IMG/VR virus record: IMGVR_UViG_3300020810_000992
Span: 21,300-85,299 of that record
From: a virus
Strand: one strand, 5' to 3'
DNA length: 64,000 nt
The notes under the pieces are model-generated. The model made no database searches. It saw only the letters and a program-made list of their open reading frames with translations, and was not told where the DNA came from. The position numbers and the translations under genes were made by a program. Each line of letters opens with the position of its first letter. The stretch's first letter is position 1. Below, one piece after another: positions 2,047 to 30,112 of the stretch.

Positions 2047-3969
2047 TTGGCATTAGGTATTTTAGTTTTAATTACTGCTCTTACTATATCAGCAGTAGCA
2101 ATATATTATTCAGTAGCAGGTCTGGTGGCAATCTTTGCCGCGGCCGCACTTCCTATTATGATTATGGGTGGTGCATTAGAAGTTGGCAAACTCGTAACAG
2201 CAGTTTGGTTACACAAGTATTGGTCACAAGCAAAATGGTGGTTGCGAACGTATCTCGCATTAGCTGTATTGATTTTGATGTTCATTACAAGTATGGGCAT
2301 CTTTGGCTTTCTATCAAAAGCACACATTGAACAAACGAGTGCAGGTGAAGAAAGCGTAGCACAAGTTGAACGTTTAACTTTAGAAATAGATAGACAAACT
2401 AATATTATTAAACGTGCAGAAGAACAAATTACTAAATTAGAAACTAGTGGTACAGGAAACGATGCTAATATTCAATCACAGATTGATAAAGAGCAGGTGC
2501 GTATTGACACAGCATACGATCGAATTGATCCTGCTATTGCAGAACAAAATACAATTATTGCAGGCGTTACTGCATTGTTCCAACAAGAACTTGACCGCAT
2601 TGATGGAGAACTTGCAACACTACAAGGTTACATTGACGCAGGAGAAATCAAAAAAGCACAGGGCATGGTAGGTACAGCAACAGATGGTGCTTATGGTCCT
2701 AAGACAGCCGCGGCGTTTACAGCATGGCAAGACGCTAAACGTGCAGAGCGTAACGAATGGTTACAAAAGATTCAAGAATCCGCAAATTCACCTACTGTAA
2801 AAGCGGCACGTGATGAAATTGCAAGACTACGCAAAAGCGCAGAAGATCAAATTGCACAGTCAAATACACTAATCAATCGCCTGCGTAATCAATTAGGCAC
2901 AACAGATAAAACTGCTGAAATTGATGCCCAAGTTGATGAGCAGAATGCTCGTATTAAAACTGCTAATGCAGAAATCAATACGCTTACAGAAGAAAAATAT
3001 GCATTAGAAGGTGAGTATCGTAAATTAGAAGCAGAAGTAGGTCCGATTAAATACATTGCTGAATTTGTATATGGCGAAAACGCAGATAACAATATGCTTG
3101 AAGACGCTGTACGTTGGGTAATAATTATTATTATCTTTGTATTTGACCCACTAGCAGTCTTATTGCTGATAGCAAGCCAATATACCTTTGAGTTTAGACG
3201 CAAACAACTTGAAGATGACAGCGGTGACCGTCTTCGGCTCGAGAGACAGGAATATGAACAAGCAAGGGCACAGCGTATAGTTGACAACCCTGGCTATAAT
3301 ATTGATGATCTTAAGGAGGATGCGGATGAAAACGACCAACGAGAAGATAGAGAAGAGACAGAGCAAGTTGATACAAGCCTGCCTAAAGCACAACCCAGCG
3401 AAACAGTTGAAGCACAAGATGAAGCTGATCCAGTTGTGGCTACAGAAAAAGAAAGAAAATTAAATGTTACAACAAATACTACTACAACAGATGATGATAG
3501 CAGAGACGTTCTATCAAAAGATGATATTGCCAAGTCTTATCACACAGATGACAGAGTGGAACAGTCTAAAGTACAGGCTGATGAAATCAAACATCAAGAA
3601 TACTTAGAAGAAGAAAAAACGTCTAATCCAATCGAAAAAAAAGAGTTAGAATCGTCGGAAGAGTCAAACGACCTAGAGAATTGGAATAAATGGGTAGAGG
3701 CTGCCGAAGAAGCTGTTCAAAAAGAAGAAGTAGACATTCGAGCTCAAAAAGTAACAGAGCAAGAAACTGACGCTGAATGGGTTGAAGCAAAGCGTAAATG
3801 GAAAGACGAAAATCCAGATCAAAATCTAAAAGATTGGAAACATGCTTATATCTCAGGAAGAATAGAAGATCTTCCTTGGGCCAAATATGTAAAGAACTCA
3901 TACGTACAAAACGAGGAACAAAGTGAGAATTCAATTTGGAATAAATTGTCACGTGCAGACAATAAGTAA
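2047..3969 (+). CDS. membrane-anchored coiled-coil protein with putative peptidoglycan-binding motif and acidic tail
   Basis: N-terminal hydrophobic helices, long heptad region, DGAYGPKT motif, further TM segment, E/D-rich C-terminus. Confidence 0.65.
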   Translation: MALGILVLITALTISAVAIYYSVAGLVAIFAAAALPIMIMGGALEVGKLVTAVWLHKYWSQAKWWLRTYLALAVLILMFITSMGIFGFLSKAHIEQTSAGEESVAQVERLTLEIDRQTNIIKRAEEQITKLETSGTGNDANIQSQIDKEQVRIDTAYDRIDPAIAEQNTIIAGVTALFQQELDRIDGELATLQGYIDAGEIKKAQGMVGTATDGAYGPKTAAAFTAWQDAKRAERNEWLQKIQESANSPTVKAARDEIARLRKSAEDQIAQSNTLINRLRNQLGTTDKTAEIDAQVDEQNARIKTANAEINTLTEEKYALEGEYRKLEAEVGPIKYIAEFVYGENADNNMLEDAVRWVIIIIIFVFDPLAVLLLIASQYTFEFRRKQLEDDSGDRLRLERQEYEQARAQRIVDNPGYNIDDLKEDADENDQREDREETEQVDTSLPKAQPSETVEAQDEADPVVATEKERKLNVTTNTTTTDDDSRDVLSKDDIAKSYHTDDRVEQSKVQADEIKHQEYLEEEKTSNPIEKKELESSEESNDLENWNKWVEAAEEAVQKEEVDIRAQKVTEQETDAEWVEAKRKWKDENPDQNLKDWKHAYISGRIEDLPWAKYVKNSYVQNEEQSENSIWNKLSRADNK

Positions 3970-4625: not shown

Positions 4626-5210
4626 ATGACACTTACTGCCGAACAGTGGTTTCCCAGTGTTATCTGGTCAGGAATGTTGTCGGGTGTAGATAATGAAGCT
4701 ATCTCATTATTTGCATACGATCGAATGGCAGTTGACACTGGTGTACAAATATCAAATTATCTAGGATGGCAAAGTAATCCTATTCGACATGGTGATTGTG
4801 AGGAATTTGATAAACTTGTATCTGTATTAAACGAACAAATTCACAATTGTTCAGTACAAGCAGATCTTCCAGAATTGCAGGTACAGAATATTTGGATTAA
4901 CATTAATAAACCAGGTGCATATAATCACTTGCATAATCACGCTGGTGCACTCCTAAGTGGAGTATACTATGTAAAAAGTACACCTGAACAAGGCAACATC
5001 TTTTTTGAAAGAGGAGATAATGCCGAATACTTTTTACCTCCAATGGAAAAACCAAATTATTTTACAAGTACTGCAACAACTTACAAAGCAATGTCTGATG
5101 CTTTGTATATTTTTCCTGGTTGGCTTAAACATAGTGTACAGCCTAATTTAACCAAAGATGATAGAATTAGTATAAGTTTCAATTACGGAGTTAAACCAAA
5201 TGCGACTTGA
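4626..5210 (+). CDS. 2OG-Fe(II) oxygenase-like protein (TIGR02466-like)
   Basis: [32 protein letters not shown]. Confidence 0.85.
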
Positions 5211-6339
5211 AGAAGACACAAAGTTAGATTATAAAGATGTACTTATTCGTCCCAAGCGAAGCACACTAAGCAGTCGCAAAGAAGTAGACTTAGAACGCAA
5301 GTTTACATTTCGTAACTACGTTCCAGACTTTCCAGACAACATAGAAGACTATCAGTATCGTGGTATTCCTATTATGGCGGCCAATATGGATGGTGTTGGT
5401 ACTATGGAGATGGCAGATAAACTTGCAGAAGGCAATATGTTTACTTGTCTAGTTAAAACATATCCAGTTGAAAACCTAGTTGATTACTTTAATGCAGGTA
5501 TCAAAGAGCGTACAGATAATGTAGCTATGAGTATAGGTATTACTGATCATGATATGGGTAAGTTTATGCGAGTATACTCACAAGCAGATGGAAATTTAAA
5601 ATACGTCTGTGTAGACGTAGCAAATGGATATTCTGAACGATTTGCAGACTTTATTCGCAAATTAAGAAACCAGTATCCAAATATTGTAATCATCGCCGGA
5701 AATGTAGTAACAGGCGAAATGACGGAGGAATTGATTCTTGCTGGAGCTGATATTGTTAAAGTGGGCATTGGCCCTGGTTCTGTGTGTACAACTCGTATTC
5801 AAACTGGCGTGGGTTATCCTCAGTTATCGGCAGTTATTGAGTGTGCAGATGCGGCTCACGGGCTTGGTGGTCACATCATCGCTGATGGTGGATGCACTTG
5901 TCCTGGTGATGTTGCTAAGGCATTTGCCGCAGGTGCAGACTTTGTAATGCTTGGTGGTATGCTTGCTGGACACGATGAAGGTGGCGGCGAAGTAATTACA
6001 AAATATTACGAAACAAATGAACGTAACTATGAAATGAGTCAAGGCACACCAGGTGGATTTGAGAAAGTTATAGAAACTAAAAAGTTTATACAATTCTACG
6101 GAATGAGCAGTGATACTGCAAACGATAAACATTTTGGCGGACTAAAGGAGTACCGTAGCAGTGAAGGACGAACAGTTCTTGTGCCTTACAGGGGAGAAGT
6201 AGCACGGACAGTACAAGACTTGCTCGGAGGTATCCGTTCAACTTGTACATATGCAGGCGCCAAAAAACTAAAACAACTTAGTAAATGCACAACCTTTGTA
6301 CGTTGCACACAACAATTTAACGCAGTATACGCAAACTAA
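5200..6339 (+). CDS. guaC: GMP reductase
   Basis: [50 protein letters not shown]. Confidence 0.95.
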
Positions 6340-20870: not shown

Positions 20871-21319
20871 TGTTAAAAAAATTAAATATTAAAGATGTGC
20901 TAGAACTAATCGAGGATGATCCTGTTCGACCACATATTACAGCGGAAGATCGTACACGGAATGGTCGTGAAGTATATGCATTATATGAAGACCAATATGC
21001 TACAGAAGCACCTGTGCTACACGAAGGTCCACGGGCAGTCATTTGTGTAGCATATACTAGTGAAGTTCCAACAAACGAAGATGATTTAAACAATATAGGA
21101 ACAGATATTGCAGTATTTTATACCGTTTGGAGTTACGAAAAAGGTGCAGGAAGAGACATTGTATTTACTGTTGCAGAACATATTAAATCACAATATCCAG
21201 ATGTAAAACGATACGTAACATTAAGCCCGTTAACAGAAATGGCTAAGAATTTTCACCTAAAAAATGGTGCAAAATTTATTGCAAAACACTTAAATTGCCA
21301 AAATTTTGAGTATTTTTAA
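20864..21319 (+). CDS. hypothetical phage protein (possible GNAT-like fold)
   Basis: FYTVWSYEKGAGR...TLSP..EMAKNFHLKNGA. Confidence 0.6.
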   Translation: MVMLKKLNIKDVLELIEDDPVRPHITAEDRTRNGREVYALYEDQYATEAPVLHEGPRAVICVAYTSEVPTNEDDLNNIGTDIAVFYTVWSYEKGAGRDIVFTVAEHIKSQYPDVKRYVTLSPLTEMAKNFHLKNGAKFIAKHLNCQNFEYF

Positions 21320-28505: not shown

Positions 28506-28850
28506 ATGAAAACTACATTAAAAGGATCCTTAGGATTAGTACACATAATGACTGACTTAACTGAAAAAGGTTATGAAGTCTTTACTCCACTTAGTGAGCA
28601 TTCAACAGTTGATTTGATTGCTTACAAAGATTATAAGTGCGAACGCATTCAAGTTAAGTATAGAGAACCATATCGTAACAGAGTAGAGGTTCCTATGCAC
28701 ACAGTACAAAATGGTAAGAAAGCGCCATATGATACTAAAGAAATTGACTTGTTTGCAGTTTATTGTCCAAGTTGGGGCATTAAATATGTTCCACCAAAAG
28801 AAGACGGTAAAGGCTACTTTCTAAAAGAAGCAGACTTTACTAACGAATAG
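28506..28850 (+). CDS. PD-(D/E)XK endonuclease, I-Ssp6803I-like (free-standing homing endonuclease candidate)
   Basis: KGSLG..DLTEKGYEVFTP..VDLIA..RIQVKY..Y....IDLFAVY; stop codon overlaps first base of tRNA-Ser. Confidence 0.75.
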   Translation: MKTTLKGSLGLVHIMTDLTEKGYEVFTPLSEHSTVDLIAYKDYKCERIQVKYREPYRNRVEVPMHTVQNGKKAPYDTKEIDLFAVYCPSWGIKYVPPKEDGKGYFLKEADFTNE

Positions 28851-28939
28851 GAAGATTGGCCGAGTGGTTTAAGGCGGGGGATTACTAATCCCTTGTACGT
28901 GAGAGCGTACCGTGGGTTCGAATCCTACATCTTCCGCCA
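28850..28939 (+). tRNA. tRNA-Ser(ACT)
   Basis: Acceptor GGAAGAT/ATCTTCC, G73, CCA; anticodon loop TT-ACT-AA (28884-28886); long variable arm. Confidence 0.9.
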
Positions 28940-28940
28940 A

Positions 28941-29014
28941 GCGGGTATTGTGTAATGGTAAGACCTCAGATTTCCAATCTGATGATAGGAGTTCGATTCT
29001 CCTTACCCGCTCCA
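28941..29014 (+). tRNA. tRNA-Gly(TCC)
   Basis: GCGGGTA/TACCCGC, loop TT-TCC-AA, U73, CCA. Confidence 0.93.
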
Positions 29015-29034
29015 ACAACAACTAAGGAGGACTT

Positions 29035-29229
29035 ATGTTCTTTGGAGTAGCTCTAATCATGGCTTTGTTCGTCCATGACAATAAAGAGTTTTTCGACACA
29101 GTCGAACAGAACAGAAAAGACGGAATGTCTTGGCATTATGTAGGCAAGCAGGAACCAGATAATAATCCTGCTATTACAGTCAAAGACTTTCAAAACAAAG
29201 ATGTAATTTTTTGGAAGATGGATAAGTAG
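29035..29229 (+). CDS. small hypothetical protein
   Basis: AAGGAGG SD; hydrophobic N-terminus. Confidence 0.6.
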   Translation: MFFGVALIMALFVHDNKEFFDTVEQNRKDGMSWHYVGKQEPDNNPAITVKDFQNKDVIFWKMDK

Positions 29230-29236
29230 AATGTTA

Positions 29237-29312
29237 GCCGGCGTGGCACAGTTGGTAGCGCAAGGGTTTTGTAAACCTTAGGTCGGGAGTTCGAGTCTCT
29301 CCGCCGGCACCA
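29237..29312 (+). tRNA. tRNA-Thr(TGT)
   Basis: GCCGGCG/CGCCGGC, loop TT-TGT-AA, ACCA end. Confidence 0.93.
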
Positions 29313-29332
29313 TTTAACTTATCCAAAATAGA

Positions 29333-29361
29333 TTGACAACGATAAATAAAGATAGTATAGT
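29333..29361 (+). promoter_or_regulatory. sigma70-type promoter of leader/tRNA-Trp/tRNA-Cys unit
   Basis: TTGACA-N17-TATAGT. Confidence 0.8.
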
Positions 29362-29393
29362 ATACACATACTAAAGAAACAAGGAATAGATAA

Positions 29394-29462
29394 GTGTTAA
29401 GAACATCACAACAGTCATCATTACAGTGCTGGTGCCCTTCAAAAGGAAGGGGTATGTCTTAA
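29394..29462 (+). CDS. putative attenuator leader peptide, 22 aa, with Cys-Trp-Cys control codons
   Basis: AAGGA SD 29381-29385, GTG start, MLRTSQQSSLQCWCPSKGRGMS; TGC-TGG-TGC at 29427-29435. Confidence 0.75.
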   Translation: MLRTSQQSSLQCWCPSKGRGMS

Positions 29463-29491
29463 CGCGACTTTGTAAAAAGTTTATTTTAGAC

Positions 29492-29527
29492 AAGCCCCTA
29501 GCACTAATAATGTTAGGGGCTTTTTTT
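29492..29527 (+). terminator. intrinsic terminator (attenuator 3:4 hairpin)
   Basis: GCCCCTAGCA-N7-TGTTAGGGGC followed by T7. Confidence 0.9.
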
Positions 29528-29537
29528 ATGAGTTTTT

Positions 29538-29621
29538 GTCGGGTCGGTACAGTTGGAGTGGTACACTGGTCTCCAAAACCAGGACGAGAGTCAGGGGGTT
29601 CGAATCCCTCACCCGATGCCA
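29538..29621 (+). tRNA. tRNA-Trp(CCA), atypical
   Basis: GTCGGGT/ACCCGAT, G73, CCA; loop CT-CCA-AA; C at position 8; 11-nt variable region. Confidence 0.85.
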
Positions 29622-29626
29622 AATAT

Positions 29627-29701
29627 GTGAGCGTGGCGGAATGGTTACGTACCGGATTGCAAATCCGTGTAATGCAGGTTCGAGTCCTGTCGCTCACTCC
29701 A
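29627..29701 (+). tRNA. tRNA-Cys(GCA)
   Basis: GTGAGCG/CGCTCAC, loop TT-GCA-AA, U73, CCA. Confidence 0.92.
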
Positions 29702-29720
29702 ATTATAAAGGATAGGAATA

Positions 29721-30038
29721 TTGCAAAAACGAGGCGAATTTAATTTAACTGCAACACTGTACGACAAGCGAGGGCGTATTCTCGCTGTAGGCACAAACAG
29801 TTATTCAAAGAGTCATCCTTTGCAAGGTAAGTTTGCTGTTGAAGCAGGAAAGCCTGATGCAATATTCCTACATGCAGAAATTGATGCACTACGTAGATGT
29901 AAGGACTGGTCGTCGATTAGAAAGATTGTAATTGAGCGTTATGATATAAACGGTAATCCAAAACTTGCAAAACCATGTAAAGTGTGTCAACATGCAATTG
30001 AAAGCATAGGTATTCCAGAAATTGAATATACTGAGTAA
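29721..30038 (+). CDS. zinc-dependent deaminase (cytidine deaminase/TadA-like fold)
   Basis: LHAEIDAL and KPCKVC zinc motifs; TTG start after AGGA. Confidence 0.8.
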   Translation: MQKRGEFNLTATLYDKRGRILAVGTNSYSKSHPLQGKFAVEAGKPDAIFLHAEIDALRRCKDWSSIRKIVIERYDINGNPKLAKPCKVCQHAIESIGIPEIEYTE

Positions 30039-30112
30039 ATTCTAAATACAAATCAGGTTGACAATCTTAACTAATGGTGCTACACTATATAAAATAAACA
30101 AGTGAGGCAAAT

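Follow-up and report, generated by a model that had tools for sequence, protein, structure and literature searches.

How does a phage that carries its own transfer RNA (tRNA) genes control when they are made? The question is raised by a locus in a 64,000-nucleotide (nt) stretch of virus DNA, positions 21,300 to 85,299 of the 85-kilobase IMG/VR record IMGVR_UViG_3300020810_000992 (completeness rating 24%); we call this whole stretch the window, and coordinates refer to it unless a contig is named. The carrier is an uncultured marine phage, and at 29333-29701 it presents a promoter, a short open reading frame (ORF), a terminator with a competing antiterminator, and then genes for tRNA-Trp and tRNA-Cys. 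Leader-peptide attenuation is the textbook control of amino-acid operons, and judged from its sequence the locus appears to be a ribosome-mediated transcription attenuator, built like that of the trp operon, with the phage's own tRNA genes as its output. We put the probability of the full mechanism at roughly two in three, and that of the narrower claim, that a translated leader and a terminator gauge the tRNAs encoded behind them, higher still. The phage would then probably make tRNA-Trp and tRNA-Cys only when ribosomes read the codons of the leader slowly. The anatomy of the element, its conservation, a covarying helix between its start and stop codon regions and a link between leader codons and downstream tRNAs can all be read directly from the DNA.

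The element lies on the + strand and begins with a sigma-70-type promoter, TTGACA-N17-TATAGT (29333-29361; score 11/12). A Shine-Dalgarno (SD) sequence, AAGGA (29381-29385), is placed 8 nt 5' of the GTG start of a 22-codon leader ORF that ends in TAA (29394-29462 in the ORF listing) and specifies the peptide (M)LRTSQQSSLQCWCPSKGRGMS, with the putative control codons TGC-TGG-TGC (Cys-Trp-Cys) at 29427-29435. The last four sense codons (29448-29459, segment 2) can pair with the start-codon region, with a C-rich strand past the Trp codon, or with segment 3 (29488-29499). The last of these pairings forms the antiterminator, in which the helix 29448-29459:29488-29499 encloses a GUAA-capped hairpin; segment 3 can alternatively pair with segment 4 in an intrinsic terminator (29492-29527) with a 12-base-pair (bp) stem (29492-29522), a 7-nt loop and a T7 run. 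The two structures have 29492-29499 in common and are mutually exclusive. The enclosed hairpin, GACUUU-GUAA-AAAGUU (29466-29481, by folding), is followed by a U-rich tract, and we infer that this unit may be an RNA polymerase pause site. The first regulated gene, tRNA-Trp(CCA) (29538-29621, 84 nt), starts 10 nt 3' of the T run, and the second, tRNA-Cys(GCA), occupies 29627-29701; both match the Rfam tRNA model.

The main folds of this leader are predicted to be more stable than their shuffles. The ORF domain (29390-29472) folds at -23.4 kcal/mol (z -3.4) and is closed by a 9-bp helix in which the start codon with codons 2-3 (29394-29402) pairs with the last codon, the stop codon and 3 further nt (29457-29465). 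The antiterminator (29445-29503) folds at -22.4 kcal/mol (z -5.0; none of 200 shuffles as stable), the terminator (29488-29527) at -19.1 kcal/mol (z -4.5), and the entire leader (29368-29535) has a z of -4.4, again with none of 200 shuffles as stable. The original prediction, made from this stretch alone, had already named the promoter, the SD, the ORF, the Cys-Trp-Cys codons, a hairpin, the 2:3 helix, the terminator and both tRNAs, and every one of them was found where it had been placed. It had included neither the GTG start, nor the start:stop helix 29394-29402:29457-29465, nor the fact that, among relatives, the Trp codon alone (TGG, 29430-29432) is invariant.

Four related contigs, found through a deaminase-like neighbour of the locus, carry the same leader between tRNA-Thr and tRNA-Trp. 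Exact-pattern scans of viral and metagenome contigs, anchored on segment 2 and the stop region, yielded 111 stretches in the former and at least 118 in the latter, mostly from marine samples; after removal of duplicates and of 19 too near a contig end, at least 126 distinct copies remain, and all family counts given here are of copies among the matches listed. The alignment holds 124 of these, without L148, which has no T6 run by our rule, and L160, which contains an N. The codon-match set comprises the 107 copies that extend 800 nt or more downstream (the 17 shorter ones were left out), and a control with upstream tRNAs comprises 70 loci, the 54 with less than 1500 nt upstream being left out. 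Segment 2 is invariant in the main set by construction, because it served as the scan anchor; a scan with an alternative anchor, the 5' part of the ORF, returned 49 stretches, 47 with the same segment 2 and 2 off by one base. The loose pattern TGGTGC..GGGTATGTC gave, among the matches listed, mostly chance occurrences and three genuine new copies, and two candidates (L137 and L140) were rejected as members of the family since their terminators are chance ones.

The unit of leader and tRNA-Trp is kept throughout. All 126 copies have tRNA-Trp(CCA) downstream, and it is the first gene in 125 (124 by ARAGORN; in L187 a Trp-type tRNA whose anticodon stem is mismatched was missed by that program and identified by eye), the one different order being tRNA-Cys before tRNA-Trp in L322. 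A promoter scoring at least 10/12 lies at the equivalent place in 110 of 123 relatives, its -10 end in most cases 30-32 nt ahead of the start codon, and the terminator, with a mean of -19.7 kcal/mol over 124 copies, displays compensatory stem variants in the alignment. Terminator-like sites occur within 200 nt upstream in 128 of 130 tRNA-Trp contexts; across 234 family loci a terminator stands in front of the Trp-led tRNA block only (0/62 for Thr, 0/53 for Gly and 0/37 for Leu). Searches of a phage collection by blastn, using 28800-30100 and the majority-type leader with tRNA-Trp, matched tRNA parts only and, at this sensitivity, found no cultured phage with the leader, and tblastn with a neighbouring ligase gave only distant matches of at most 36% identity. 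Rfam scans, over 28700-29800 with expectation values (E) up to 10 and at gathering level for L322, L014 and L012, put only tRNAs above cut-off.

The leader behaves as a reading frame whose peptide is little constrained. It is open in all 124 aligned copies, at 17-24 codons, whereas the +1 frame is closed by stops in 84 and the +2 frame in 98. The start codon is ATG in 96 and GTG in 28, 112 have an SD-like tetramer between -16 and -4, and in 117 the start is 40, 43, 46, 49, 52 or 55 nt from segment 2, a distance that changes by threes. The 124 copies encode 94 different peptides, and the entropies at the three codon positions (0.60, 0.74 and 0.76 in the largest class) do not mark the third as notably more variable. 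A frame that is kept while its peptide is barely constrained points to a leader, as opposed to a working micropeptide, and we take the ORF to be translated on these sequence grounds. At least one Trp codon is present in all 124 copies, and in 115 it lies 13-19 nt 5' of segment 2. Conservation of the leader ORF among homologous loci, on which the original prediction had staked its case, is thereby found, and its Cys-Trp-Cys motif survives in part: the Trp is universal, but the first Cys is present in 76 copies, the other 48 having N, Y, R, G, D or another residue in its place. The residue after Trp is Pro or Cys in 123 copies, with W-P-P in 68.

What ties the leader to the genes behind it is the identity of its codons. 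Of the 184 non-Trp tRNAs downstream in the 107 copies, 166 have a cognate codon in their leader, as against 138.8 ± 3.8 (maximum 152 in 5000) when tRNA clusters are shuffled globally and 144.8 ± 3.3 (maximum 158) when they are shuffled within the two leader classes. The excess is confined to positions -8 to +4 around the Trp codon, with z up to 8.8 at -2, and there is none at -10, -9 and +5 to +8. For Cys, codon and tRNA occur together in 59 copies, the codon only in 30, the tRNA only in 1 and neither in 17; that is, tRNA-Cys is encoded downstream in 60 of the 107 copies, and the leader has a Cys codon in 59 of those. Tested in the same way, as a control aimed at a genome-wide codon-usage effect, the tRNAs upstream of the leader give 49 matches of 99 against 46.9 ± 3.0 on shuffling, which is no excess. 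Individual loci illustrate the correspondence: a leader reading ..R-W-C-P-E.. precedes tRNAs for Trp, Pro, Cys, Glu and Arg (L012), one reading C-W-C-P-S precedes Trp, Pro, Ser and Cys (L011), and one reading I-I-C-W-C-P-S-Q, with the two Ile codons both ATA, precedes Trp, Ser, Gln, Cys and Ile(UAU) (L014).

The association is also seen, in the pooled count, when descent is taken into account. In a tree for which only the short flanks outside the ORF and the tRNA-Trp gene were used, independent pairs of copies were scored by whether codon and tRNA differ in the same direction, in opposite directions or not at all. The scores (same, opposite, no difference) are 2.8, 0.0 and 7.2 for Cys; 4.8, 0.0 and 2.2 for Ile(UAU) with ATA; 4.9, 0.1 and 3.0 for Ser(UGA); 2.6, 0.0 and 4.4 for Gln; 1.0, 1.5 and 1.5 for Gly; and 18.6, 1.7 and 37.8 for all 13 kinds together. 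Across the relatives compared here, then, the leader codons track the downstream tRNA set, and the expectation of the original prediction that control codons and tRNA identities would co-vary is borne out.

The RNA structure of the leader is conserved in a manner that involves the ends of the reading frame. The first base of the start codon is matched in all 124 copies, through an A:T pair in 96 and a G:C pair in 28; in all 28 copies with a TAA stop this codon pairs with TTAA in codons 2-3, and of the 96 with TGA, 94 have the complementary codons 2-3 and the remaining 2 pair through a U·G wobble. The mean energy of the duplex is -12.7 kcal/mol (-3.9 with shuffled partners), and the helix covaries in 124 of 124 copies; it was counted per sequence, as RNAalifold lost it through gaps in the 124-row alignment. 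Two hairpins lie inside this helix, and together they make up the conserved 5' fold of the family. In the first, the 3' strand takes in the codon preceding Trp together with the beginning of TGG, and by eye the two strands change together, from CAACA:TGTTG to CAATT:AATTG or CAATAT:ATATTG as Cys is replaced by Asn or Tyr. In the second, the G run of segment 2 is bound by the C-rich strand after Trp (GTGCCC or GGCCACC in relatives). The 1:2 hairpin CCCTTC/GAAGGG of the original prediction, which likewise ties up that G run, is present in the window at 29435-29451 but is not the conserved hairpin of the family. In 120 of 124 copies the stretch leading from the stop codon to segment 3 contains a hairpin of 5-7 bp (threshold 5 bp) with AUUU(U) after it.

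For the antiterminator, the segment 2:3 duplex averages -10.5 kcal/mol across the family, compared with -8.3 when the 9-nt flank is shuffled and -7.4 for the terminator arm alone, and the flank outdoes its own shuffles in 98 of the 124 copies, or in 53 of 68 when each combination is counted once. We also folded transcripts cut before the 3' arm of the terminator, with the footprint of a ribosome masked, and computed the predicted chance that the 5' arm of the terminator pairs upstream. This is 0.59 with the ribosome at the Trp codon, 0.38 with it at the stop codon and 0.66 with no ribosome, and the Trp-stalled value exceeds the stop-codon value in 110 of 124 copies. These models fit an arrangement in which a finishing ribosome leads to termination and a stalled one to read-through.

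The scheme that we favor is as follows. The strong promoter would give rise to a leader RNA of about 160 nt containing the 22-codon ORF. With no ribosome on the ORF, or with a ribosome that has finished at the stop codon, segment 2 would be unavailable, either tied up by the start-codon region and the C-rich strand past the Trp codon or covered by the ribosome, and segment 3 would then pair with segment 4 and end transcription 10 nt before tRNA-Trp. When a charged cognate tRNA is short, the ribosome would stall at UGG or at neighbouring codons (Cys in the window; Pro, Ser, Ile-AUA, Gln, Glu and Arg in relatives) and leave segment 2 bare; segments 2 and 3 would pair, no terminator would form, and the polymerase would enter tRNA-Trp, tRNA-Cys and probably a deaminase gene behind them. 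The tRNAs so made would end the stalling, which amounts to negative feedback on the tRNA pool. The parts of this mechanism that we infer are the translation of the ORF, the pausing at the small hairpin, the sign of the switch and its physiological trigger, which the original prediction took to be shortage or host anticodon-nuclease cleavage.

A number of observations weigh against this scheme or limit the support for it. The family is one fairly tight clade, which makes its counts interdependent. The pooled sign test over independent pairs gives about 2e-4, with kinds of tRNA mixed and branches that may be shared, and none of the tests for single tRNAs falls below 0.05 (medians 0.06-0.25). The match itself is incomplete: 18 of the 184 tRNAs are unmatched, among them Arg(GCG) in 0 of 8 cases, 30 leaders have a Cys codon with no tRNA-Cys downstream, and the leader in the window misses in its own right, keeping Pro and Ser codons without those tRNAs downstream. 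Classical attenuators usually carry several control codons, whereas here there is a single Trp codon per leader, and as this codon lies inside a covarying hairpin, part of the invariance of TGG may be structural. The antiterminator is conserved chiefly in its core of G run and C run; its far half is weakly conserved, the flank adding about 2 kcal/mol, and two-sided compensatory change in the 2:3 helix is invisible because segment 2 was the search anchor. Compensatory changes in stems, which the original prediction proposed to look for, are seen in the start:stop helix (124/124) and among the terminator variants. Masking the ribosome footprint, likewise proposed there, separates the Trp codon from the stop codon, but the antiterminator is also predicted in the ribosome-free equilibrium fold (0.66), no clear state in which the lack of a ribosome leads to termination was seen in the masked folding, and the step from no translation to termination consequently rests on the order of folding. 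Further, when segments 2-4 are folded together the terminator wins, which means that the switch must be kinetic. Finally, twenty RNA-library runs contain at least part of the stretch, and in 3 of 4 salt-marsh metatranscriptomes single contigs (about 28900-29653) cross the terminator, although these are assemblies and may be DNA. A contig from run X3 stopping at 29530 was considered as a transcript 3' end and rejected, as it continues into a strain variant.

Two other explanations deserve to be set against the attenuator. The locus could be a free-standing small-RNA gene, producing a stable RNA of about 160 nt that acts elsewhere, with an incidental ORF and with tRNAs that are expressed through leakage at the terminator or by transcription from upstream. 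The strong structure (z -4.4) with its covarying closing helix and the unconserved peptide would suit such a gene, and the alternation of ATG with GTG and of TAA with TGA is also what transitions within a helix would produce. We nevertheless consider this unlikely: the frame is open in 124 of 124 copies with the other frames mostly closed and with insertions and deletions in threes, an SD-like site stands at the proper distance in 112, the leader codons follow the downstream and not the upstream tRNA set, and the element is always found directly before tRNA-Trp. Terminated attenuator RNAs can themselves act in trans in Sinorhizobium (PMC6614838). A small-RNA role could also be additional to attenuation.

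The second explanation keeps the translation-coupled switch and removes its specificity for tRNAs, making it either a sensor of general ribosome slowdown or a device of opposite sign, in which translation is needed for read-through. The presence of one Trp codon only is compatible with this, as is the antiterminator predicted without any ribosome; further, W-P-P occurs in 68 of 124 leaders, and polyproline is an intrinsic ribosome stall site. Against a general slowdown sensor stands the codon-tRNA match, which is specific in kind and in position and for which such a sensor would have no need, and a device of opposite sign would form a positive loop leaving the tRNAs off exactly when they are short, besides having to contend with a ribosome at the stop codon that covers segment 2. 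We accordingly give this explanation little credence in either form.

Less probable still is a T-box-like sensor made of RNA only, working without a ribosome, whose specifier would be the invariant UGG, paired to the CCA anticodon of tRNA-Trp. It would account for the invariance of UGG, the closed multi-helix fold and the terminator/antiterminator pair downstream, but T-boxes measure 200-300 nt, far more than this leader, and no T-box covariance model matches 28700-29800 at E up to 10; moreover, one specifier cannot explain neighbouring codons that track tRNAs for Cys, Ile, Ser, Gln and Glu, and the conserved SD, start codon and frame would have no role in a T-box. A plain insulator, with the terminator ending an upstream unit (tRNA-Thr and a small promoter-proximal ORF) and the tRNAs read from a phage-specific promoter, is equally improbable, for even though our promoter scan sees sigma-70-type sites only and the 70-95-nt inserts of about 30 of 124 relatives could hold other signals, the spacer is below 30 nt in 93 of 124 copies and 10 nt in the window, and the ORF, the start:stop helix and the codon match would be left unexplained.

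The same spacing bears on an independent promoter for the tRNAs downstream of the terminator, which the original prediction had recognized as fatal to its proposal: the gap from the T run to the first tRNA is short in the copies just counted, and in the window the sigma-70-type scan found no other promoter-like site of at least 9/12 on the + strand over 29362-29917. On balance the comparative evidence supports the attenuator with trp/his-type layout and tRNA output that had been proposed from the single sequence.

In the roughly 30 loci with an insert of 70-95 nt between terminator and first tRNA (e.g. L013, about 3154-3241, - strand; L322, about 756-846), most inserts fold into a cloverleaf-like form with a 10-bp closing stem, ACTACACTA/TAGTGTAGT, and two or three inner hairpins (-20 to -27 kcal/mol), and neither ARAGORN nor Rfam calls them. 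On the - strand of L013, at 4929-5274, ARAGORN reports a permuted transfer-messenger RNA (tmRNA) gene with the tag peptide ANDNYAPEMALAA between two tRNA blocks. In many majority-type copies (e.g. L167 and L242), judged by eye, the -10 region reads TATTATAAATAC, containing a TATAAATA box which we take to be of T4 late-promoter type and which overlaps the sigma-70 -10 hexamer; in these copies the leader might be transcribed at early as well as late times.

The deaminase gene mentioned above is an ORF of 105 amino acids (29721-30038, + strand; a small zinc-deaminase-like protein, Pfam PF00383, E 1.1e-06) that starts 20 nt past tRNA-Cys. The scan found no promoter-like or terminator-like site between 29701 and 29721, and in contigs L002-L004 the attenuated block itself contains the deaminase-like ORF, flanked by tRNA-Pro and tRNA-Cys; in the window it probably belongs to the same transcription unit as the two tRNAs. 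The regulated tRNA-Trp has a variable region with a stem-loop, and at 84 nt it scores a low 40.6 bits with the Rfam tRNA model; across 125 family loci the length of this tRNA is 84-91 nt in 24 and 74-78 nt in the rest. In a contig where segment 2 has ACG in place of ATG (L350), the next tRNA is Trp-like by eye, with an anticodon region unlike the usual CTCCAAA loop and a loop that may be enlarged. Upstream of the leader the window encodes a tRNA-Ser with anticodon ACT, that is with A at position 34 (28850-28939); of 70 family loci, 10 have the same kind 5' of the leader and 9 have one with GCT. An ORF for a PD-(D/E)XK endonuclease (28506-28850; PF11645, E 1.1e-17) ends exactly at the start of this tRNA-Ser.

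Taken one step further, the leader may be a programmable gauge of the tRNA pool, rewritten codon by codon along with the tRNA cargo, with loss of host tRNAs during infection as its trigger. Such loss could come from tRNA-cleaving defences or from a shut-off of host tRNA synthesis, and the phage would supply replacements only as needed. We offer this as a tentative idea and hold it to be rather doubtful as it stands. If true, the virus would carry a sensor-and-repair loop for translation. The attenuator reading itself, if right, would show how phages regulate their own tRNA genes, which is largely an open question, with the tRNAs supplied on demand as opposed to constitutively, and it would provide a natural, compact and re-programmable sensor for the availability of individual tRNAs. 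The match of codons to tRNAs across relatives makes the attenuator idea directly testable with reporter fusions, and it is also relevant to the proposal that phages carry tRNAs to counter host attack on tRNAs.

The element thus appears to place a known type of control in a new setting, the attenuation of tRNA genes, of which we found no published account. The original prediction had known of no attenuator with its cognate tRNAs as output, and our literature search for a leader-peptide attenuator before tRNA genes likewise found none, most subscription journals, the early papers on the T4 and T5 tRNA regions and supplements lying outside its scope. A tRNA operon is mentioned in passing in the relevant portion of PMC3082878. 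An attenuator-like leader of the E. coli tRNA-Phe genes was considered as a precedent and dropped: pheV, the one gene looked at, has its promoter directly before the tRNA and no leader. The nearest concept that we found in print is the trn tRNA array of Anabaena sp. PCC 7120, a set of extra tRNA genes that, in the portions of PMC8421152 and PMC10272220 that deal with it, are silent until translation is impaired. Its control is there ascribed to the repressor TrcR acting at direct repeats in the promoter (PMC8421152, the text of which has no occurrence of 'attenuat' or 'leader'). Both systems hold an extra tRNA gene set induced, in our case putatively, by impaired translation, but the Anabaena array is chromosomal or plasmid-borne with a promoter repressor, whereas the one described here is phage-borne and has the layout of an attenuator.

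Among attenuators proper, that of E. coli trpL (with hisL, pheL and leuL) is the closest in design. It has in common with the phage element a promoter, a short leader ORF with control codons, a terminator with a mutually exclusive antiterminator (in the phage, predicted clearly in the window and less so across the family), and a stop codon at which a ribosome completing the leader would sit on segment 2; the 13-19 nt between the Trp codon and segment 2 are a spacing that we take to be like that of trpL. The differences are that trpL controls genes for amino-acid biosynthesis and the phage element tRNA genes, with a phage as the carrier; that trpL has a tandem pair of Trp codons and the phage leader one; and that the anti-antiterminator of the phage consists of two elements, of which one, a covarying helix, sequesters the start codon as well. 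The leader falls below the cut-off for the Rfam Trp_leader family (RF00513; 19.3 bits against 41, E 0.5), as it does for Thr_leader (22.2 against 55) and the PyrR site (32.4 against 54). Arrest peptides of the TnaC type are conserved, end in Pro-stop and act on Rho-dependent termination with no intrinsic terminator; the phage peptide, in contrast, is unconserved beyond Trp, has Ser or Phe as its last sense codon and is followed by an intrinsic terminator.

With pheM, the leader of the pheST operon and an attenuator for synthetase genes, and with the T-box, the phage element would have in common the control of parts of the translation apparatus by the supply of charged tRNA; the outputs of those systems are synthetase genes, and the T-box, which lacks an ORF, senses the tRNA itself. 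Multivalent attenuators are likewise known, thrL responding to Thr and Ile and ilvL to Ile, Leu and Val, and they resemble the phage leader in that one leader has control codons for several amino acids. Unlike theirs, the control codons of the phage leader are rewritten from phage to phage with the tRNA cargo, and what would be gauged and what would be produced are the same molecules.

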